Shown here: positions 5,053 through 31,876 of the stretch, piece by piece
Position numbering within the stretch: the stretch's first letter is position 1
Layout: every line of letters starts with the position of its first letter
Assembly: GCA_041651035.1 (NCBI GenBank)
Contig: JBAZKC010000002.1
Span: 30,884-94,883 of the forward strand
Source: Candidatus Omnitrophota bacterium
GTDB taxonomy: Bacteria > Omnitrophota > Gorgyraeia > Gygaellales > Profunditerraquicolaceae
Reading direction: 5' to 3'
DNA length: 64,000 nucleotides
Made by a program: the position numbers and the translations under genes
The notes under the pieces: model-generated
The model's database searches: none
The model's input: the letters and a program-made list of their open reading frames with translations, nothing else
Told to the model about the DNA's origin: nothing

Positions 5053-7866
5053 ATGGAAGAAAATATCATTATCAGGGGAGCCAAAGAGCATAATCTAAAA
5101 GATATAGATCTTAAGCTGCCCCGCAATAAATTTATCGTGATCACCGGTTTGTCTGGTTCGGGCAAATCCAGCCTCGCCTTTGATACTATTTACGCGGAAG
5201 GCCAGCGCAGGTATGTCGAGAGCCTTTCCAGTTACGCCCGCCAGTTCTTAGAACAGTTACAGAAACCGGATGTTGAGCACATTGAAGGGCTATCTCCGTC
5301 TATAGCGATAGAACAAAGGGCTGCCGGAGGGAGCCCGCGCTCCACGGTGGCAACGCAAACTGAGATCTATGATTATTTGAGGCTGCTTTTTGCCCGCATT
5401 GGAAAGGTATATTGTTATCAATGCGGACAGCCGATAGAAAAACAAAGTTCACAGGAAATAATAGGTAAAATAATGGCTTTATCTTCCGGGACATCCATTC
5501 AGATATTGGCTCCGGTAGTAAGGGGGAGAAAAGGGGAATACAAAGAAATATTCGGTTCAATTCAGAAGTCAGGGTTTGCGCGCTGCCGGGTTGACGGCAA
5601 AGTTTATGAACTGCCGGCAAAGATAAAACTCGCCAAATATAAGATCCACGATATCGAAGTGGTTGTGGATAGATTGATCATTAAGCCGGAAATAAAAAAG
5701 AGGTTAACCGATTCGGTTGAGACGGCGCTTAAGGCTGGTAAAGGCAGTATAATTGTTTCTTTAACTGGTGCGCGTGCCCAAGAATTGGTTTTTAATGAAC
5801 AATACGCCTGCGCAAAGTGCGGTATAAGCTATTCGGAAGTCGAACCGCGCACATTTTCTTTCAATTCTCCGTATGGGGCTTGTCCTGAATGTAACGGCTT
5901 AGGCACAAAACTGGAGTTCGATCCCGATTTAGTTATTCCGGATAAAGATAAATCTATAAATGAAGGAGCAATAGATCCCTGGAGAAGGGGAGGCCGGGGA
6001 TACATACTTTATTATCGCTGGCTCATCAGGGAGCTTTCTTCCAAGATGGGTTTTGACCTGGGAACGCCGTTTAAGAGATTAAGCAAGGTAGCGCAGAAGG
6101 CGATACTCTATGGTACTGATGAAATTGTGGGAAGCAAGCCCTTTGAAGGCGTAATACCTAATTTGGAAAGGTTATTCCGCGAAACAGACAGCGATTATTT
6201 AAAAGAAGAAATTTCCAGGTTTATGTCCAGCCTGCTGTGCCCTGTGTGTAAAGGTGCCAGGTTACGTAAAGACAGCTTGTCTGTAAGGATCGGCAATAAG
6301 AATATCTGGGAAGTTTCACTGATGTCCATAAAAGAAGCTCAGGATTTTTTTAACAGATTAGAATTGGATGAAAGGCAGAAGATAGTCGCCCAGCATGTAT
6401 TAAAAGGCATAATTCAGAAGATTAGATTCTGCGCTGATGTAGGGTTGGATTATTTAACTTTAGACAGGAAGAGTTCGACTCTTTCAGGAGGGGAGGCGCA
6501 GAGGATCCGTTTAGCCACTCAGGTGGGCTCAGGGCTCGTGGGCGTGTTGTATGTCTTAGATGAGCCCAGTATAGGTTTACATAAAAGGGATATCGATAAG
6601 CTCCTTTTGACTCTTAAGGCTTTAAGGGATTTAGGCAATACTTTGATTGTCGTAGAGCATGATGAATCCATGATCCTGGCCGCGGATCACATCGTAGACC
6701 TGGGCCCGGGCGCGGGCAGGCATGGCGGAGAAGTGATTTTTTCCGGGTCAAAGGAAGCGCTTTTAAAAGATCAAAAATCCCTTACCGCTAAATACCTGCG
6801 GCGGGAATTAAAAATAGATATTCCTCTTAAAAGGAGGCCGTGGCAGGATAAAAAGTTCCTGGAAATAGTCGGGGCCAGGGAACATAACTTAAAATGCATA
6901 GATGTAAAATTCCCTCTAGGTTTGTTTGTTTGCGTTACAGGCGTATCAGGTTCAGGCAAGTCTACTTTAATAGACGGGATATTGTTTAAGGCCTTAGCGC
7001 AAATGCTCTATAGAGATCCCCGGAACAAACCCAAAGAAAAACCCGGTCTTTATGAAAAGATCAAAGGGGCGGAATTTATCGACAAGGTTATAGTAGTTGA
7101 TCAGTCTCCCATAGGCAGGACCCCCCGCTCAAATCCGGTTACATATACCGGTGTTTTTACTCATATCAGGGATATATTCAGCAGGCTTCCCGAGGCCAGG
7201 ATGCGGGGTTTTAAACCGGGGAGGTTTTCTTTTAATGTCAAGGGCGGGCGCTGCGAAGCATGCGCGGGCGACGGTATAAAAAAGATAGAGATGCATTTTC
7301 TTCCCGACGTATATGTAAAATGCGGTGTATGCAAGGGCTTGAGATTTAACGAATCCACCCTGGAAGTAAAATATAAAGGTAAGTCCATCGCTGATTGTTT
7401 GGAAATGACCGTAGAAGAGGCGCGGGAGTTATTCGCTAATATCCCTAAGATAAGCAATACCCTTAACCTTCTTTCCGATGTAGGCTTAAACTATATACAG
7501 CTCGGCCAGCCGGCGACTACTTTATCCGGAGGAGAGGCGCAGCGCCTCAAGCTTTCCTCCGAGCTTAGCAAGCGTTCCACAGGCAAGACCCTGTATATCC
7601 TGGATGAACCCACTACGGGTTTGCATTTTGCTGACGTGGCAAAGCTGCTGTCGGTCCTGCAAAGATTAGTGGATAAAGGCAATACAGTCATTGTGATCGA
7701 GCACAATTTAGAAGTAATAAAATGCGCCGACTATATTGTTGATCTTGGGCTTGAGGGAGGGGATAAGGGTGGAGAGGTTGTAGCTTTTGGAAGCCCCGAA
7801 GAGTTGATCAATAATAAGAGATCATATACTTCCCAATCCTTAAGAAAGGTATTGAAGGGTAAATAA
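5053..7866 (+). CDS. uvrA: Excinuclease ABC subunit A
   Basis: 937 aa, two ABC ATPase modules ([12 protein letters not shown].., LSGGEAQR x2), zinc fingers CxxC. Confidence 0.97.
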
Positions 7867-23590: not shown

Positions 23591-23614
23591 GTGTGTCCCT
23601 AAAGATAATTTTAC

Positions 23615-23690
23615 GGGGCAGTAGCTCAGTTGGGAGAGCGTCGCGTTCGCATCGCGAAGGCCGTGGGTTCGAATCCCATCTGCTCCACCA
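23615..23690 (+). tRNA. tRNA-Ala (anticodon CGC)
   Basis: 76 nt cloverleaf folded by hand: acceptor GGGGCAG/CUGCUCC with a G3:U70 wobble (the Ala identity element), D-arm GCUCAGUUGGGAGAGC, anticodon loop UUCGCAU, T-loop GUUCGAAUCC, encoded CCA, then a T6 tract. Confidence 0.9.
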
Positions 23691-23700
23691 TTTTTTGAGC

Positions 23701-24834
23701 ATGAAGAATATTTTAAGGTTAAGTTTAGGGCTGTTTTTTCTTCTGGGTTTGATCAGTGTTTGTTTCTATTTTCAAGATATTCCCACGCCGCCTTTTTCAA
23801 TAGCAGCCCAATCTCAAGAATCCGGATCTAAAGAAGCGCTTTTTTATCAACGGCTGGATAACAAAGCTGTCCAATGCCGATTATGCCCGCGGAATTGCTT
23901 CATACCTGAAGGCGGCCGCGGATTTTGCGGGGTAAGGGAAAATCAGGAAGGGGTATTGTATGCTCTTTCTTACGCTAAAGCCGTTGCCATACATATTGAT
24001 CCTATCGAAAAAAAGCCTTTATTCCATTTCTTACCGTCTACTGCCGCCTTTTCTGTTGCCACCGCGGGCTGTAACTTAAGGTGTAAATTCTGCCAGAACT
24101 GGGAGATCTCTCAGAAGCGTCCGGAAGAAGTTGATTATGTGTATCTTGAACCGGAGGAATTAATCAGGAAGGCCCAGGAATCCGGCTCTCCGGTGATAGC
24201 TTATACCTATACCGAACCTACCATATTTTACGAATATATGCTTAAGACCGCTAAGCTTGCGCGCGCCCGGGGAATAAAAAATGTCATACATTCCGCGGGC
24301 TATATTAACGAGGAGCCCTTGAGGCAATTAGTAAAGTATATTGATGCCGCTAATATTGATTTAAAAGGTTTTAGTAATGATTATTATGCCCAGATGTCGG
24401 AGGCGACATTAGAGCCTGTCCTTAGGACCTTAAAGATATTAAAAGACGCGGGCGTGCATCTGGAAATTACCAATTTGGTGCTGGCCGGTTATAATGACAG
24501 CGCGGATGCAATTGCTAAAATGTGCCTGTGGATAAAGGAAAATTTAGGCAGTGACACGCCAATACATTTTTCCCGGTTTTTCCCGATGTATAAAATGCTT
24601 AGCCTTGATCCCACGCCGGTTGAGACTTTAGAGAAGGCAAGGAAGATCGCCCTGGATTCCGGATTAAAATATGTGTATATAGGTAACGTCGCTGGACACA
24701 CCGGAGAGAATACCTATTGCCCTAAATGTAAAAGCATAGTTATCCAGCGCAGGGGCTATTTTATCTTACAGAATAATATTAAAGATGGAAAATGCAGGTT
24801 TTGCGGTGAAAAGATTGACGGGGTTTGGAATTAG
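23701..24834 (+). CDS. amrS: AmmeMemoRadiSam system radical SAM enzyme
   Basis: ATG at 23701 (the track ORF started inside the tRNA). CRLCPRNC and GFCGVREN, then CNLRCKFCQNWEIS (the CxxxCxxC radical SAM cluster), resembling the pyruvate formate-lyase-activase-like AmrS family. Confidence 0.85.
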   Translation: MKNILRLSLGLFFLLGLISVCFYFQDIPTPPFSIAAQSQESGSKEALFYQRLDNKAVQCRLCPRNCFIPEGGRGFCGVRENQEGVLYALSYAKAVAIHIDPIEKKPLFHFLPSTAAFSVATAGCNLRCKFCQNWEISQKRPEEVDYVYLEPEELIRKAQESGSPVIAYTYTEPTIFYEYMLKTAKLARARGIKNVIHSAGYINEEPLRQLVKYIDAANIDLKGFSNDYYAQMSEATLEPVLRTLKILKDAGVHLEITNLVLAGYNDSADAIAKMCLWIKENLGSDTPIHFSRFFPMYKMLSLDPTPVETLEKARKIALDSGLKYVYIGNVAGHTGENTYCPKCKSIVIQRRGYFILQNNIKDGKCRFCGEKIDGVWN

Positions 24835-26290: not shown

Positions 26291-26944
26291 ATGACGAAGA
26301 TAATTATCAGCCTGTTTTTAACAGGCTTGTTATTCGGATCAGGCCCTTGTATGGCAAGCTGCGGCCCTTTTCTTATTAGTTATATCGCGGGATCCGGGAA
26401 AAGTATCACCAAGGGGATCATGGCTTATATTTTATTTTCTTTAGCCCGGATACTTGTGTATGTTGCCCTGGCTTTAGCGGTTTTCTTTTTAAGTAGTATC
26501 GCGGTAGAGAACTTATTGGGCGGTTTATATAAATATATCCTTATAGCAGGAGGCGGTTTTATAGCTATTATTGGTTTATTTATGTCTTTTGGAAAAAAGC
26601 TGGAATTCAGGCCGTGGCAGACCTTGTATAAGAATTTATTTGAACGCGATAAAAAAAGTGTTTTTGCTGTTGGGTTAATGATCGGGCTCCTGCCTTGCGC
26701 GCCGCTTTTATCAGTACTTTCTTATGTAGGCTTAGTTTCGCGGACGTGGCAGGCAAGCTTATTATATTCTCTTTCCTTCGGCATAGGCACTTTTGTATCT
26801 CCGTTGCTGTTACTGGTTATTTTCGCAGGCGCGATACCGCGTTTGCTGCCGGACAAGAAAGCAGCTTATCATAAGATATTTACTTTTATTTGCGGTTTAA
26901 TAATTATATTCTTAGGGGTTCAATTAATTCTAAAGGGATTTTAG
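26291..26944 (+). CDS. Integral membrane protein, DsbD_2 / TauE-SafE-like family
   Basis: 217 aa, ~6 TM helices, GSGPCMASCGPF and LLPCAPL Cys motifs within the TM helices. Confidence 0.45.
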   Translation: MTKIIISLFLTGLLFGSGPCMASCGPFLISYIAGSGKSITKGIMAYILFSLARILVYVALALAVFFLSSIAVENLLGGLYKYILIAGGGFIAIIGLFMSFGKKLEFRPWQTLYKNLFERDKKSVFAVGLMIGLLPCAPLLSVLSYVGLVSRTWQASLLYSLSFGIGTFVSPLLLLVIFAGAIPRLLPDKKAAYHKIFTFICGLIIIFLGVQLILKGF

Positions 26945-27685: not shown

Positions 27686-28967
27686 ATTCATTACTTTAGG
27701 CTGTAAGGTAAATCAATTTGATACCCAAAGTATAAGAGAGAGGTTCTTAGGGGCAGGGTACTCGGAAATAGATAACGGAAAACCCGCGGATATTTACCTG
27801 ATTAATACCTGCACAGTTACGCATAGGGCGGACTCTGATTCTCTTAATCTTATCCGCAAAGCAAAAAGAGAGAACTCCCGCGCCAAGATCATAGTTACCG
27901 GCTGCCTTACAGAACTTGATGAAGATTTAATAAGGCAGGCTGCAGCCAAGGTGATAATTGTAAAAAATAAGGATAAAGAAAAGCTGCCTTCACAGGGACT
28001 GACCCCGAAATATAACTCCCGAAGAGCTGTTCTTAGGGGTCTGTCCCTAAGAGCCAACAGCATTTCTTACTTCAAAGGCCACACCCGCGCATTCTTAAAA
28101 ATTCAGGACGGCTGCGATAATTTTTGTTCTTACTGCAAAGTCCCGTTAGTAAGAGGGAGATCGCGTAGCCGTGGCTTAGACAAGATTGTAAGCGACGCGC
28201 GGCAGCTGGTAAAAAACGGTTTTAAAGAGATAGTGCTATGTGGTATTTGCCTGGGTTCGTATGGTAAAGGCTTAAGCAGCGGCAAAAATCTTGTTGATGT
28301 GATTGAAGCGCTGGAAAAAATAGACGGGTTATTGCGCATCAGGTTGAGTTCTATAGAAGCAGGTGATGTTTCAGATAAATTGATTGCTAAGATGGCAGGC
28401 TCCGAGAAATTATGCCCGCATCTGCATATTCCTATCCAAAGCGGTGATGACGATATTTTAAAGAAAATGAACCGCCGCTATAGCCGTAAGGATTATCTGG
28501 CGCTTATCAAAAGAATAAAAAAGAATATTCCCGAAGTTGCCATTACTACGGATGTATTAGTAGGTTTTCCCGGAGAATCTGAATGCAACTTTCAAAATAC
28601 CCTGAAATTAATCAAGGAAATTCTGCCTTTAAAAGTGCATATTTTCCCTTATTCTCCGAGAAAAGGCACACTGGCTAGCGCAAAATTCAATCAAAGGATA
28701 GACCCTGGAATAATAAAAGAAAGGATTGCCCGGCTTAAGGACGTCGCCGGCAGTTGTTCGCTTGAATATAAAAAACAATTCTTGAATAGGAATATGCAGG
28801 TGCTTGTTGAAGGCCGTTCCAAAGAAAACCCCGCTTTCTGGCAGGGCCATACAGGAAATTTCCTAGAGGTTCTAATAAGGTTAGATCTTAATCTAAGCAA
28901 TAAAATCGTTACAACTAAATTAAGAAAACTAAAGGACGATTTTGTTTTAGCGGAGATTTTTCATTAG
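27675..28967 (+). CDS. mtaB: tRNA methylthiotransferase, MtaB/MiaB-like (MTTase N-domain, radical SAM, TRAM)
   Basis: MKTVKFITLGCKVNQFDTQ.., CDNFCSYCKVP radical SAM cluster. Carries a 61-bp in-frame palindromic element at 27993-28053 in the inter-domain linker. Confidence 0.85.
   Translation, partial: KTVKFITLGCKVNQFDTQSIRERFLGAGYSEIDNGKPADIYLINTCTVTHRADSDSLNLIRKAKRENSRAKIIVTGCLTELDEDLIRQAAAKVIIVKNKDKEKLPSQGLTPKYNSRRAVLRGLSLRANSISYFKGHTRAFLKIQDGCDNFCSYCKVPLVRGRSRSRGLDKIVSDARQLVKNGFKEIVLCGICLGSYGKGLSSGKNLVDVIEALEKIDGLLRIRLSSIEAGDVSDKLIAKMAGSEKLCPHLHIPIQSGDDDILKKMNRRYSRKDYLALIKRIKKNIPEVAITTDVLVGFPGESECNFQNTLKLIKEILPLKVHIFPYSPRKGTLASAKFNQRIDPGIIKERIARLKDVAGSCSLEYKKQFLNRNMQVLVEGRSKENPAFWQGHTGNFLEVLIRLDLNLSNKIVTTKLRKLKDDFVLAEIFH
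27993..28053. repeat. Type A GGGAC/GTCCC palindromic element, in-frame inside mtaB
   Basis: cagggactgaccccgaaatataactcccgaagagctgttcttaggggtctgtccctaagag; translated as QGLTPKYNSRRAVLRGLSLRA. Confidence 0.8.
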
Positions 28968-28968
28968 A

Positions 28969-29026
28969 CAGGGACTGGGTCCGAAATATAGCACCAGCAT
29001 GGTTGTTCTTAGGAGCCTGTCCCTAT
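28969..29026. repeat. Type A palindromic element, intergenic, directly after the mtaB stop
   Basis: cagggactgggtccgaaatatagcaccagcatggttgttcttaggagcctgtccctat. Confidence 0.8.
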
Positions 29027-29045: not shown

Positions 29046-29073
29046 TTGATTTTTAGCCTTTTAATTATATAAT
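29046..29073 (+). promoter_or_regulatory. Candidate promoter TTGATT-16-TATAAT upstream of the paralog array
   Basis: TTGATT at 29046-29051 and TATAAT at 29068-29073. Confidence 0.4.
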
Positions 29074-29104
29074 AAAATCAACCAAGCCCTTAGTAAAGGA
29101 ATAT

Positions 29105-29764
29105 ATGTCTAAATTACTTATTAAGATAGGGATCACCTCATTTTTCCTGCTCATCCTCTCCTCTTTTAGTTTTGCCGAAGAAACCCTTACCTTTACCACG
29201 TATTATCCGTCACCCTATGCCAGCTACAACGAGCTCCGCGCTAAGCGTATGGCTATTGGTGATAATTATATTGACAGCACTACTTATACCTGGGAGGTAA
29301 CCGACGGAGATGGAGGAGAGGTTGATTACTTAGCTGACCTGGTAGTTGAAGGCAGGGTAGGCATCGGCACAGTTATTCCTACTGTTCCTCTGCATGTCGC
29401 AGGCGCGGCAACCGGAGCTGTAAGGATAGTAGATGGCAACCAGGCTTTAGGTTATGTCCTGACTTCAGACGCAAACGGCGTAGGCAAATGGCAGGCAAGT
29501 TCAGGTGGTATAGTATATACATACTATTGTTATAACTCTCCCAGAGGCACTCCTGTGTGTACCGACTCCGGAGGCACTCAAGGTTATTGCCCCGCAGGAT
29601 ATACGCAGAAGCTTGCCCTTGGAGCGTGGGGTGTATGCTATTATACTGTAGCAGGCTGCTACGGTGATTCATACTATTATCATTTTCTTCCTCCGAATGG
29701 CAGTTGTGGTTCTACTTATCCCACTACGCAACTTTTTGGTTACGCTTATGTATGCTCTCAGTAA
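29105..29764 (+). CDS. Secreted Cys-rich protein, paralog 1 of a tandem triplet (unknown family)
   Basis: Signal peptide MSKLLIKIGITSFFLLILSSFSFA|EE. Conserved core YYPSPY.SYNELRAKR.AIGDNYI..TTYTWE.TDGDGGEVDYLADLVVEGRVGIGTV.PT.PLHV.G..TGAVRIVDGNQA.GYVLTSDANG.GKWQASSGG, then a variable Cys/Tyr-rich tail ending YVCSQ. Confidence 0.7.
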   Translation: MSKLLIKIGITSFFLLILSSFSFAEETLTFTTYYPSPYASYNELRAKRMAIGDNYIDSTTYTWEVTDGDGGEVDYLADLVVEGRVGIGTVIPTVPLHVAGAATGAVRIVDGNQALGYVLTSDANGVGKWQASSGGIVYTYYCYNSPRGTPVCTDSGGTQGYCPAGYTQKLALGAWGVCYYTVAGCYGDSYYYHFLPPNGSCGSTYPTTQLFGYAYVCSQ

Positions 29765-29772
29765 AGGAATAT

Positions 29773-30405
29773 ATGCCTAGATTATTTATTAAAATAGGGA
29801 TCACCTCATTTTTCCTGCTCATCCTATCCTCTTTTAGTTTTTCCGAAGAAACTCTTACTATCACCTCCTATTATCCTTCACCTTACGGCAGCTACAACGA
29901 GCTCCGCGCCAAGAGAGTGGCTATAGGAGACAACTACATCAACACCACTACCTATACCTGGGAGACAACCGATGGAGACGGAGGAGAGGTTGATTACTTA
30001 GCTGACCTGGTAGTTGAAGGCAGGGTAGGTATCGGTACCGTTACTCCAACTACTCCGTTGCATATCGTAGGCACAACTACTGGAGCTGTAAGGATAGTAG
30101 ATGGCAACCAGGCTTCAGGCTATGTCTTAACATCAGACGCAAATGGCCTAGGCAAATGGCAGGCAAGTTCAGGAGGTACAATGTACATGTATTATTGTTT
30201 TTCTAGCACTACCTATGGCACTCCTGTGTGTACCAACTCCGGAGGCACCCGGCTTTATTGCCCCGCAGGATATACACAAAAACTTGCGCTTGGCGCGTGG
30301 GGTACAAGCAACGGTCTCCAAGACCCGTATTATATTCCTCCGGGCGGCAGTTTCAGTGGTATTGCTGGATATGTTGGTTCAGCCTATGTATGCTCTCAGA
30401 ATTAA
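29773..30405 (+). CDS. Secreted Cys-rich protein, paralog 2
   Basis: The ATG at 29773 is preceded by the same agtaaaggaatat unit as paralog 1, with ~85-90% nt identity to paralog 1 in the first 430 nt. Confidence 0.7.
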   Translation: MPRLFIKIGITSFFLLILSSFSFSEETLTITSYYPSPYGSYNELRAKRVAIGDNYINTTTYTWETTDGDGGEVDYLADLVVEGRVGIGTVTPTTPLHIVGTTTGAVRIVDGNQASGYVLTSDANGLGKWQASSGGTMYMYYCFSSTTYGTPVCTNSGGTRLYCPAGYTQKLALGAWGTSNGLQDPYYIPPGGSFSGIAGYVGSAYVCSQN

Positions 30406-30418
30406 AAAGAGGTGTATA

Positions 30419-31123
30419 GTGTTTAAGAACAAGTTTTTATTCTTTCCGCCACTAATCTTTATTTTATTTCTTATTCCAAATTATTTCCTTTTTGCCGAAG
30501 AAACTCTCACTATCACCTCCTATTATCCGTCACCTTACGGCAGCTACAACGAGCTCCGCGCTAAGCGTATAGCCATAGGAGATAACTATATCAATACCAC
30601 TACCTATACCTGGGAGGCAACCGACGGAGATGGAGGAGAGGTTGATTACTTAGCTGATCTGATAGTTGAAGGCAGGGTAGGCATTGGCACGGTTACTCCT
30701 ACTGTCCCGCTGCATGTTACAGGTACATCAACCGGGGCTGTAAGGATAGTAGACGGCAACCAGGCTTCAGGCTATGTCCTGACTTCAGACGCAAACGGCG
30801 TAGGCAAATGGCAGGCAAGTTCAGGTGGTACAAGTTATACATACTATTGTTATAACTCTACATATACTAGTATGTTTGGAGTCGTGATGGCTTCTACTGG
30901 TACCCCCCAATGTACCGACTCCGGAGGCACTCGAGGTTATTGCCCCGCAGGATATACGCAGAAGCTCGCGCTTGGCTCATGGGGTATATGTGCGGCAGGC
31001 GTTCTTACCTACTATGGATATTTTCTTCCTCCGAGTGGCAGTTGTGGTACCGTGAACATATCAGGTACAGATTTTGCTGCGGCTGCTGTTGTTTACGGCA
31101 CAGCATACGTTTGTTCTCAGTAA
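30419..31123 (+). CDS. Secreted Cys-rich protein, paralog 3 (probable GTG start)
   Basis: The GTG at 30419 is preceded by an aaagagg RBS. Mosaic similarity to paralogs 1 and 2, with the longest C-terminal tail. Confidence 0.6.
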   Translation: MFKNKFLFFPPLIFILFLIPNYFLFAEETLTITSYYPSPYGSYNELRAKRIAIGDNYINTTTYTWEATDGDGGEVDYLADLIVEGRVGIGTVTPTVPLHVTGTSTGAVRIVDGNQASGYVLTSDANGVGKWQASSGGTSYTYYCYNSTYTSMFGVVMASTGTPQCTDSGGTRGYCPAGYTQKLALGSWGICAAGVLTYYGYFLPPSGSCGTVNISGTDFAAAAVVYGTAYVCSQ

Positions 31124-31133
31124 ATAATATAAG

Positions 31134-31298
31134 ATGATTTATGCAAATAGAAAAAGATCATTTACGCTGGTAGAGATCATGATCGTTATCGCGATAATCG
31201 CGTTATTATCCCTTATTGCTATACCTAATTTACTCCGGCAGCGCCTCCAGCAAAATGAATCCGCGGCGCCGGCAGCTTTAAATGGTGTAGTAGCGCCA
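31134..31298 (+). pseudogene. Prepilin-type N-terminal fragment (54 codons), possibly a truncated pilin/pseudopilin
   Basis: MIYANRKRSFTLVEIMIVIAIIALLSLIAIPNLLRQRLQQNESAAPAALNGVVAP stop. Classic FTLVE + hydrophobic helix, but Ser at -1 and no globular domain. It ends where the palindromic element at 31304 begins, and is not in the ORF track (<60 aa). Confidence 0.45.
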
Positions 31299-31303
31299 TA
31301 AAA

Positions 31304-31405
31304 GACAGGGACAGCCCCCAATAGCGGCGGGACACTTTCCATTGAGTTACCTTGTTTTAGCTCTGATGGAAGGTGTCCCGTAACTGTTTTCGGGGACAGT
31401 CCCTT
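31304..31405. repeat. Composite nested palindromic element (gggacagcccc .. gggacactttcc .. ggaaggtgtccc .. ggggacagtccc) followed by a T6 tract
   Basis: Seen directly: outer gggacag arms and inner gggacac/gtgtccc arms. This may act as a terminator. Confidence 0.7.
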
Positions 31406-31459
31406 TTTTAAAATAATTTCCCTTGCTGAAGGCCGTTTTTATGATAGAATTTACATATT

Positions 31460-31876
31460 ATGAATAATACACGGGGCAAAAGTTTTGTGATGATAATGAT
31501 GGTGATAGCAGTTTCCGCCCTCTTTTTGAGGTTTGCCATCGATAAAGTAATAAGATTCAATATATCCCAGAATGAATCCAATGCCCAGGGTACGTTAAAA
31601 TTGATCTCCGCCGCCTTAGAAAATTACGCTAAGGATAACCACGGTGTTTACCCGGCAAGCGCGGATATCCTGACAAAATCCCAGCCGCCTTACCTGGACA
31701 AAGATTATATTTCCCAGTATCCCGCGAAAGGTTATAATTTCACTTGTCCGAAACTCGAACCGTCCGGTTATAACTGCTATGCCAGCCCCGTTAGGTGCAA
31801 ATTGACCGGCATAATGATGTATACCGTTACCACCGGCGGATTATTCGTATCGGAAGGGTGTAAAGTAAAAGAGTAG
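31460..31876 (+). CDS. GspG-like pseudopilin / pilin-like protein with a degenerate N-terminus
   Basis: KSFVMIMMVIAVSALFL (no Glu5) followed by NAQGTLKLISAALENYAKDNHGVYP..SQPPYLDKDY, which resembles the GspG core (A.E.Y..DNG.YP). Confidence 0.55.
   Translation: MNNTRGKSFVMIMMVIAVSALFLRFAIDKVIRFNISQNESNAQGTLKLISAALENYAKDNHGVYPASADILTKSQPPYLDKDYISQYPAKGYNFTCPKLEPSGYNCYASPVRCKLTGIMMYTVTTGGLFVSEGCKVKE

Follow-up and report, generated by a model that had tools for sequence, protein, structure and literature searches.

Three tandem genes of an Omnitrophota bacterium encode candidate short tail-fibre-like surface proteins

What are three head-to-tail genes for small, Cys-rich proteins with signal peptides doing among the housekeeping genes of an Omnitrophota bacterium? 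We addressed this question for a stretch of 64,000 nucleotides from Candidatus Omnitrophota bacterium (GenBank assembly GCA_041651035.1, contig JBAZKC010000002.1, positions 30,884 to 94,883 of the forward strand), hereafter the window, in which the three genes, designated g1, g2 and g3, form an array on the plus strand. An initial annotation had described them as tandem secreted paralogs of an unknown family, consistent with a diversifying surface protein, adhesin or toxin-like cassette that might be exported or displayed by a pilus or type II secretion system (T2SS)-like machinery. With slightly better than even confidence, we read g1-g3 as encoding a short surface fibre in three variants, built like a phage tail fibre and produced by the bacterium for its own use. 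The genes are real tandem paralogs of 219, 210 and 234 amino acids (aa), as annotated, with 74-77% protein identity in the alignment, and g2 starts at 29773, not 29774. Two of them are identical to NCBI 'hypothetical proteins' of a Candidatus Omnitrophota metagenome-assembled genome (MAG), g1 to WC723_03205 and g2 to WC723_03210; a longer upstream start is given to g3 in JGI gene call P0003. Each protein consists of four parts, namely a signal peptide, an N-terminal module (N-module), a neck, and a head with six Cys positions:

29105-29764, plus strand: g1, 219 aa (open reading frame (ORF) list and alignment)
29105-29176: g1 signal peptide, residues 1-24
29177-29353: g1 N-module, residues 25-83
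29354-29509: g1 cap-loop rung and DGNQ neck, residues 84-135
29510-29761: g1 Cys-rich head, residues 136-219
29773-30405, plus strand: g2, 210 aa, architecture as g1, head at 30178-30402
30419-31123, plus strand: g3, 234 aa, GTG start behind an AGAGG ribosome-binding site
30419-30496: g3 signal peptide
30830-31120: g3 head, with two loop insertions

The Sec signal peptide annotated on all three proteins is present by a rule-based reading: residues 1-24/26 combine basic residues, 13-15 hydrophobic residues and a small residue at -1, and cleavage is predicted directly before E-E-T-L. This A↓E-E junction is kept in 247 relatives, where it takes the form A↓E/Q-E-x-I/L-T-I-T-T/S-Y-Y-P, with E or D at the second mature position in 231 of the 247 and the T-I-T-T-Y-Y-P core in ~90%. 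Neither a lipobox nor a prepilin motif was found in the signal region of g1-g3. The N-module (residues 25-83; EETLTITTYYPSPYGSYNELRAKR.AIGDNYI..TTYTWE.TDGDGGEVDYLADLVVEG in the trio) carries the signature E-x-[IL]-T-I-T-T-Y-Y-P-[SA]-P-[YF]-G-x-Y-x-E-L-R..AIGDNY and is followed by the neck (residues 84-135; RVGIGTV.PT.PLHV.G..TGAVRIVDGNQA.GYVLTSDANG.GKWQASSGG), which holds one copy of the cap-loop rung (RVGIGTV.PT.PLH) per protein. A strongly conserved core therefore exists, as the initial annotation had it, and spans ~111 residues (25-135) rather than ~140, within mature proteins of ~195 residues. No meaningful match to g1-g3 came from Pfam or NCBIfam, and a full-length AlphaFold2 (AF2) model was of low confidence (predicted local distance difference test (pLDDT) 69) and matched nothing in the PDB with Foldseek. 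Assignment to a housekeeping family or the absence of a signal peptide had been named as grounds for abandoning the annotated reading, and neither applies.

Although the proteins belong to no curated family (Pfam, NCBIfam), and are to that extent the unknown family of the initial annotation, they are no orphan trio. In a first homology search we retrieved 136 proteins, which belong nearly all to Omnitrophota, with a few Elusimicrobia sequences among them. A profile of the N-module, when run against 1.84 billion cluster representatives, matched at least 2,456 at E ≤ 1e-3, with 588 at E ≤ 1e-10. This N-module family is almost entirely from Omnitrophota, with one further Elusimicrobia label among divergent members (cluster names), and among the 150 best matches listed the module lies at residues ~21-90 of proteins of 89-614 aa. 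The motif TYYP[SA]P[YF]GxY has at least 599 matches in GTDB species genomes, with at least 415 confirmed relatives. Family loci number several per genome: STC_87 and binchicken_co330_156, both isolates, have five each, and the complete 1.8-Mb chromosome CP070807 holds five genes at three loci, counting the best 80 members alone. A literature search yielded no account of the motif or of such an Omnitrophota tail-fibre or adhesin family.

All these relatives share the signal peptide, with the N-module immediately behind it, and differ in their C-terminus, where the tips include Peptidase_S74, C1q, gp53-like C, YadA head and DUF7483 domains as well as many sequences without a known domain. In a Pfam scan of 117 representatives, S74 was found in 26, Peptidase_G2 IMC and YadA head in 2 each, and gp53-like C, UspA1 and ApeC in 1 each, while ~70% had no Pfam domain; the S74-bearing relatives are named 'tail fiber domain-containing protein' at NCBI. 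S74, Peptidase_G2 IMC, YadA head, gp53-like C and C1q are all modules of obligately trimeric fibres or adhesins. Two types of neck can precede the Cys-rich head of the trio, and at least four types of tip can follow the DGNQ neck; neck and head are therefore shuffled independently. The same exchange of tips was seen in genomic context, for which 78 related loci were viewed and neighbour genes were clustered all-against-all in 76. Tandem family arrays occur in ~10 of the 78 loci, some of them pairing different tips: in locus L085, for instance, two of three adjacent genes are family members, one with a DUF7483 tip and one with the Cys-rich head. Apart from a regulator-like gene considered below, the recurrent neighbours define two conserved chromosomal slots, RadC-HTH-[fibre]-purB (HTH, helix-turn-helix) and [fibre]-recA-recX-alaS, and the first of these carries, depending on the genome, a Cys-rich head (P0008/P0036), an S74 tip (P0024) or another tip (P0004).

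To place the family among known structures, we compared a profile of 80 members with all PDB sequences. The only significant matches were to mosaic adhesive trimer (MAT) structures of Bdellovibrio bacteriovorus:

8OND (bd2133): E = 3.9e-13
8OJN, 8ONB and 8ONC: E = 1.4e-7
8OML: E = 4.7e-5
8OL4 and 8ONF: E = 1e-3

The alignment spans the GNVGIGT..P...L.V cap loop and, in bd2133, also the stretch just before the tip domain, where the pre-tip elements align (IKFPDGSVQTTAASGAATW versus VRIVDGNQASGYVLTSDANGVGKW). B. bacteriovorus encodes 21 chromosomal MAT proteins, such as Bd2133, Bd3182 and Bd1334 (Caulton et al. 2024, PMC10769870). In each, the signal peptide precedes an invariant N-terminal domain, by which the protein presumably attaches to the surface of the predator, and a trimeric beta-helix with V-G-G/N-pi-x-x-P-x-x-x-L capping loops; the tips, S74 or non-S74, have been swapped in evolution. 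MAT proteins are displayed on the predator cell and take part in its handling of prey (PMC10769870). The Omnitrophota proteins follow this plan at roughly one quarter of the length. They are likewise chromosomal and multi-copy, in a bacterium presumed to depend on other cells, with swappable tips with or without the S74 chaperone, and likewise run from a Sec signal peptide (by the rule-based reading) through an invariant N-terminal module to a tail-fibre-type beta-helix with a VG-x-x-x-P-x-x-x-L cap loop, which is recognised at the level of the family profile and present in one copy in each of g1-g3.

The two groups also differ. MAT fibres measure ~1,000 aa and hundreds of angstroms, a length that neither the trio, at 210-234 aa, nor the listed family members, at 89-614 aa, reach, and they come from another phylum. 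The MAT N-domain is ~130 aa and beta-rich, whereas the N-module is ~60 aa with its own TTYYPSPYG signature; the two are likened by analogy. The Cys-rich head has no counterpart among solved MAT tips. A homology search with a Bd2133 fragment returned three short fragments only, and the MAT entries in the PDB cover tips alone. Because the proteins fall short of the MAT length and their N-terminal part is likened to that of MAT by analogy, we file the family as one that works like MAT and do not count it among the MAT family.

Tail fibres and tailspikes of phages that carry an intramolecular chaperone at the C-terminus (Peptidase_S74 PF13884; phage K1F endosialidase, T5 L-shaped fibre) share the same GNVGIGT..P...L rung, the same S74, Peptidase_G2 IMC and gp53-like C tips found in many family members, and the same combination of a conserved N-terminus with a variable receptor-binding C-terminal tip swapped by recombination. 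The stalk region has weak, consistent matches to tail-fibre PHROGs (phrog_18345, E 6e-5 to 1.6e-3), and the cap-loop/DGNQ neck of g1 matches positions 411800-411967 (minus strand) of LR756501.1, a 735-kb uncultured jumbo phage, with 54% identity over 56 aa (E 7e-6). This is the sole phage-genome match to the mature protein and covers the neck only; by this alignment, the neck module is common to at least one huge phage. Together with the MAT structures, matched at profile level, these hits bear out the tail-fibre-like character that the initial annotation had seen in the VGIGT..P...LHV rung and the G.VRIVDG neck, and they show homology, at profile level, between the neck and the trimeric beta-helix that lies directly under the tip in MAT and tail fibres.

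The PHROG and jumbo-phage matches, along with the S74 domains and NCBI names of relatives, could also be taken to mean that g1-g3 are tail-fibre genes left by a prophage or tailocin, yet we regard this as very improbable. Virion fibres assemble in the cytoplasm, and no signal peptide is expected on them, whereas all members of the Omnitrophota family have Sec signal peptides. Genes for phage fibres sit in phage or tailocin structural clusters, whereas the family genes, both in the window and in the examined loci, lie among housekeeping genes: their flanks hold rRNA/tRNA-modification genes, RNase G, RadC, purB and recA, and phage structural genes are absent from the surroundings. Among the 2.9 million viral contigs of IMG/VR, no relative of the N-module was found, and the one phage match concerns the neck and neither the N-module nor the head. 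Unlike 26 of the 117 family members, g1-g3 also lack the C-terminal S74 domain (SDxxxK) of S74 tail-fibre proteins in the Pfam scan. That the trio are components of a virion was excluded, since two defining features, a phage gene cluster and the absence of a signal peptide, are missing. Trimeric autotransporter adhesins (YadA/UspA1) are another group of exported fibrous adhesins with modular heads, and YadA-head or UspA1 repeats do occur in a few family members; however, no YadA-type C-terminal anchor was matched by Pfam in g1-g3 or the 117 family members, and the conserved element here is N-terminal.

The tip of the trio proved to be more ordered than the hypervariable Cys/Tyr-rich tail first described, although its divergence bias and YVCSQ end were correctly noted. 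In g1-g3 the head measures 84-101 aa, is marked by six fixed Cys positions and closes with YVCSQ(N). Its conserved stretches (YxYYC, GTPxCTxSGGTxxYCPAGYTQKLALGxWG, LPPxGS and GxAYVCSQ) form a six-Cys scaffold, and the alignment confines variation to three indel-rich loops. A head-profile search found 30 further proteins, all of which, where a source is named, come from Omnitrophota; most of these relatives are ~165 aa long and comprise a signal peptide, the N-motif, a 'KGTMYYDxxxxxxxVCxGxxW' hairpin, and the head. Of 33 homologous heads, 32 have the full set of six Cys, the sole exception being that of g2, which lacks both Cys4 (WGxC) and Cys5 (GSC). Their joint loss argues for a disulfide between Cys4 and Cys5. 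The g2 head also has the shortest loops; g2 could be either relaxed or decaying, or else a form able to dispense with one disulfide.

An AF2 model of the head alone, built from a 44-sequence alignment, reached pLDDT >90 and a predicted template modelling score (pTM) of 0.66. The model shows one antiparallel sheet of four strands together with a long hairpin; the segments that vary lie in the connecting loops. Foldseek searches of this model against PDB and BFVD gave nothing below E = 0.03; the weak top BFVD matches, to phage proteins of tail-fibre or collagen-like type, are probably due to the neck. No PDB sequence was matched by the head profile. A granulin-like match (2JYE, E = 0.02) was discarded as noise from Cys composition.

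Next, we evaluated divergence among the paralogs. In a codon alignment, the signal-peptide regions of g1 and g2 are nearly identical (synonymous divergence (dS) 0.13), whereas that of g3 is unrelated in sequence to both. Further on, g3 is nearest g2 over alignment columns 87-200 and mostly nearest g1 over columns 207-640. Maximum-chi-square permutation tests gave p = 0.0055 for this switch from g2-like to g1-like and p < 0.0005 for a breakpoint at the junction of signal peptide and mature protein. Recombination or gene conversion among g1-g3 is thus supported, in line with the gene conversion that the initial annotation had suggested from the alternate matching of g3 to g1 and g2. The same annotation had expected elevated ratios of non-synonymous to synonymous divergence (dN/dS) in the tail. 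By the Nei-Gojobori method, dN/dS is indeed higher in the head (0.22-0.49) than in the mature core (0.10-0.14), head dN being 4-6 times core dN at similar dS, and amino acid change is concentrated in the head.

These patterns also bear on whether the family might be a general envelope or surface coat, akin to S-layer-like spikes, without any role in recognising other cells. The abundance of the family, its many copies, its spread through the phylum, its housekeeping loci and its invariant base would all fit such a coat. However, the diversity and shuffling of tips, the arrays of mixed tips and the loop-focused divergence point to binding of variable ligands, and we consider a mere coat quite improbable.

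A different role would be that of released Cys-rich effectors, whether bacteriocin-, toxin- or lectin-like, with the N-module as an export or targeting signal rather than an anchor. Parallels for such signals are the N22 segment of curli subunits and the TPS domain of two-partner secretion. Speaking for this are the small size and disulfide-rich make-up of the proteins, their Sec signal and the conserved stretch that lies right behind the cleavage site; the commonest head-bearing relatives are only ~165 aa long, and an anchoring partner was not found. Effectors are nonetheless unlikely in our assessment, as no immunity, transporter or partner gene recurs beside family genes, no toxin or enzyme family was matched in Pfam or NCBIfam, and the N-module also carries S74, YadA head, C1q and gp53-like tips, which are structural binders and not toxins. 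Nothing supports the toxin-like role suggested initially.

The remaining proposal of the initial annotation, export or display by the pilus or T2SS-like machinery, was weighed against gene order in and beyond the window. In that case, g1-g3 would be, for instance, tip adhesins or dedicated T2SS cargo of the neighbouring machinery. The machinery itself is present as annotated: a PilMN/PilO/secretin/ATPase/PilC locus with six pseudopilins lies upstream of the array at 13.5-23.5 kb, and pilin-like ORFs directly follow g3. Elsewhere, a major-pilin gene adjoins a family member in loci L050 and L070. However, ~5.5 kb of housekeeping genes (radical SAM, Memo-AMMECR1, DsbD-like, RsmE and MtaB-like) separate the pilus locus from the array, the adjoining pilin is a 55-aa fragment, and the gene order is not conserved, with pilin-like genes within 6 kb in ~4 of the 78 loci. 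No secretion, assembly or phage gene recurs beside family genes among the 76 clustered loci. Unlike type IV pilins and T2SS pseudopilins, g1-g3 have neither the G↓F-x-x-x-E signal nor N_methyl, and their hydrophobic segment precedes the cleavage site. A pilus- or T2SS-linked cassette thus appears improbable. Since the cargo of a T2SS depends on Sec and its genes may lie apart from those of the machinery, export by a T2SS is compatible with the surface-fibre reading that we favour.

The sole recurrent neighbour outside the conserved slots is a divergent XRE-type HTH gene of 73 aa, which lies ~97 bp upstream in 14 of the 76 loci and suggests dedicated regulation of some fibre genes. None adjoins the array in the window. 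Examples, all on the minus strand, are:

L001, 7687-7905: XRE-type HTH gene
L003, 6773-6994: XRE-type HTH gene
L004, 2852-3073: XRE-type HTH gene
L004, 5202-5411: XRE-type HTH gene
L005, 9536-9757: XRE-type HTH gene

Around the array itself, all on the plus strand, the following elements were identified:

28967-29025: hairpin after the MtaB-like gene, dG -23.9 kcal/mol, z -2.6 (RNA fold), a copy of the GGGACTGGKYCCGAAA repeat
29046-29073: sigma-70-like promoter candidate, TTGATT-16-TATAAT, upstream of g1 (consensus scan, 10/12 positions; a consensus match only)
29092-29104: AGTAAAGGAATAT unit, a 13-mer with ribosome-binding site, directly before g1
31134-31301: 55-aa prepilin N-terminus fragment, 10 nt after g3 (Pfam N_methyl, E = 3e-8; S instead of G at -1)
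31298-31415: 118-nt near-perfect hairpin with terminal T-run, dG -58.9 kcal/mol, z -8.7
31460-31876: neighbouring pilin-like ORF of 138 aa with a degenerate N-terminus (no Pfam match; pilin-like by eye only)

A second exact AGTAAAGGAATAT copy lies at 29760-29772 before g2, and these are the only two copies in the window. The leader of g3 differs and has no such unit, so that the common unit annotated before each gene holds for g1 and g2 and not for g3. Likewise, the palindromic elements said to bracket the array exist and are not specific to it, both belonging to a hairpin-forming repeat (GGGACTGGKYCCGAAA ... CCTGTCCC) that is dispersed through the 64-kb window, where 7 copies stand against 0.08 expected:

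27995, 28971, 31388 (minus strand), 36195, 46554, 46692 and 51008: copies of the dispersed repeat

The copies lie mostly at gene ends, and the repeat looks like a repetitive extragenic palindromic (REP) or terminator-like element; an Rfam search of the hairpins flanking the array matched no family. The hairpin at 28967-29025 is probably a terminator that marks the upstream edge of the array. The one at 31298-31415, which carries the repeat motif on the minus strand and a terminator-like site at 31392-31404, is likely the terminator of the unit. From the promoter-like site at 29046-29073 and this T-run hairpin, the trio and the 55-aa pilin fragment look like one transcription unit. The fragment stops exactly at the start of the 118-nt hairpin, and locus L050 has an intact pilin (6887-7360) with the same N-terminus 3' of a family member. 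The window pilin gene therefore looks truncated, and was probably shortened by insertion of the hairpin element. Beyond the hairpin, the pilin-like ORF is followed by DUF2344 and RNase E/G genes.

Two further observations concern the genes upstream. The DsbD-like gene, at 26291-26944, encodes a thiol-disulfide transporter 2 kb upstream of the disulfide-rich array, and in locus L005 a DsbD/thioredoxin pair lies ~8-9 kb upstream of the fibre gene, which may be coincidence. A tRNA gene (23615-23687; Rfam, 69 bits) overlaps the 5' end of the radical SAM ORF as called (23593-24834), and the true start of that ORF must therefore be further downstream.

Taken together, these data allow us to outline how a short surface fibre could be made and used. 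The Sec pathway would export each precursor, and signal peptidase I would cleave it directly in front of E-E-T-L. The base, the ~60-aa N-module common to thousands of Omnitrophota proteins, would dock the fibre to a common envelope component or serve as an export handle, by analogy with the MAT N-domain and phage fibres. The neck would comprise the GxVGIGTxxPxxxLHV rung and the VRIVDGNQ..VLTSDANG.GKW element, and, given its homology to the trimeric beta-helix, the fibre would probably be a trimer. At the tip, a ~85-aa beta-sheet head with three putative disulfides would present three indel-rich, Tyr-rich loops that may bind a ligand on another cell or surface. Tandem duplication and recombination between paralogs would create new combinations of loops and signal peptides, with base and neck held under purifying selection. 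Omnitrophota are abundant, uncultivated and ultra-small, and are suspected predators or parasites (PMC10066038); since they are thought to be host-dependent, the likely role would be to attach to host or prey cells or to recognise them.

Several points weigh against this fibre reading. The match to g1 alone is marginal (8OJN, E = 0.03), the strong PDB match being one of the family profile and driven by a short, widespread motif. The N-module is modelled poorly as a monomer (pLDDT ~50), and no outer-membrane route or anchoring partner was identified in the examined neighbourhoods. All dN/dS ratios, including those of the head, are below 1 and so give no support for positive selection overall. 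The term 'fibre' may be overstated, as such very short proteins with a single rung could form a stubby knob. Trimerisation, surface display, ligand binding, host or prey contact and signal-peptide cleavage are properties that we infer, and the host-dependent lifestyle of the present MAG is assumed from its phylum (PMC10066038). A more far-reaching version, which we put forward tentatively and consider rather doubtful, is that the invariant segment after the signal peptide is an unrecognised sorting and anchoring signal of a dedicated surface-display pathway in Omnitrophota and some Elusimicrobia. Such a pathway would mount interchangeable mini-fibres, and their repertoire, including the disulfide-rich head without a PDB or BFVD match, would set the choice of host or prey.

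Chimeric adhesins derived from phage tail fibres are known from Bdellovibrio, and the Omnitrophota form would be a miniaturised one with its own base module and a lineage-specific head. The means of host contact proposed for Omnitrophota so far are type IV pili and giant ORFs only (PMC10066038), and MAT-like mini-fibres with swappable tips, a large family whose members can readily be recognised and synthesised, would provide concrete candidates for host-recognition proteins. TTYYPSPYG offers a simple sequence tag with which the repertoire of each genome could be catalogued, and the small soluble tips could be expressed to fish for ligands or hosts. Overall, the reuse of phage tail-fibre parts as adhesins by cellular predators would be extended from Bdellovibrionota to a distant phylum.

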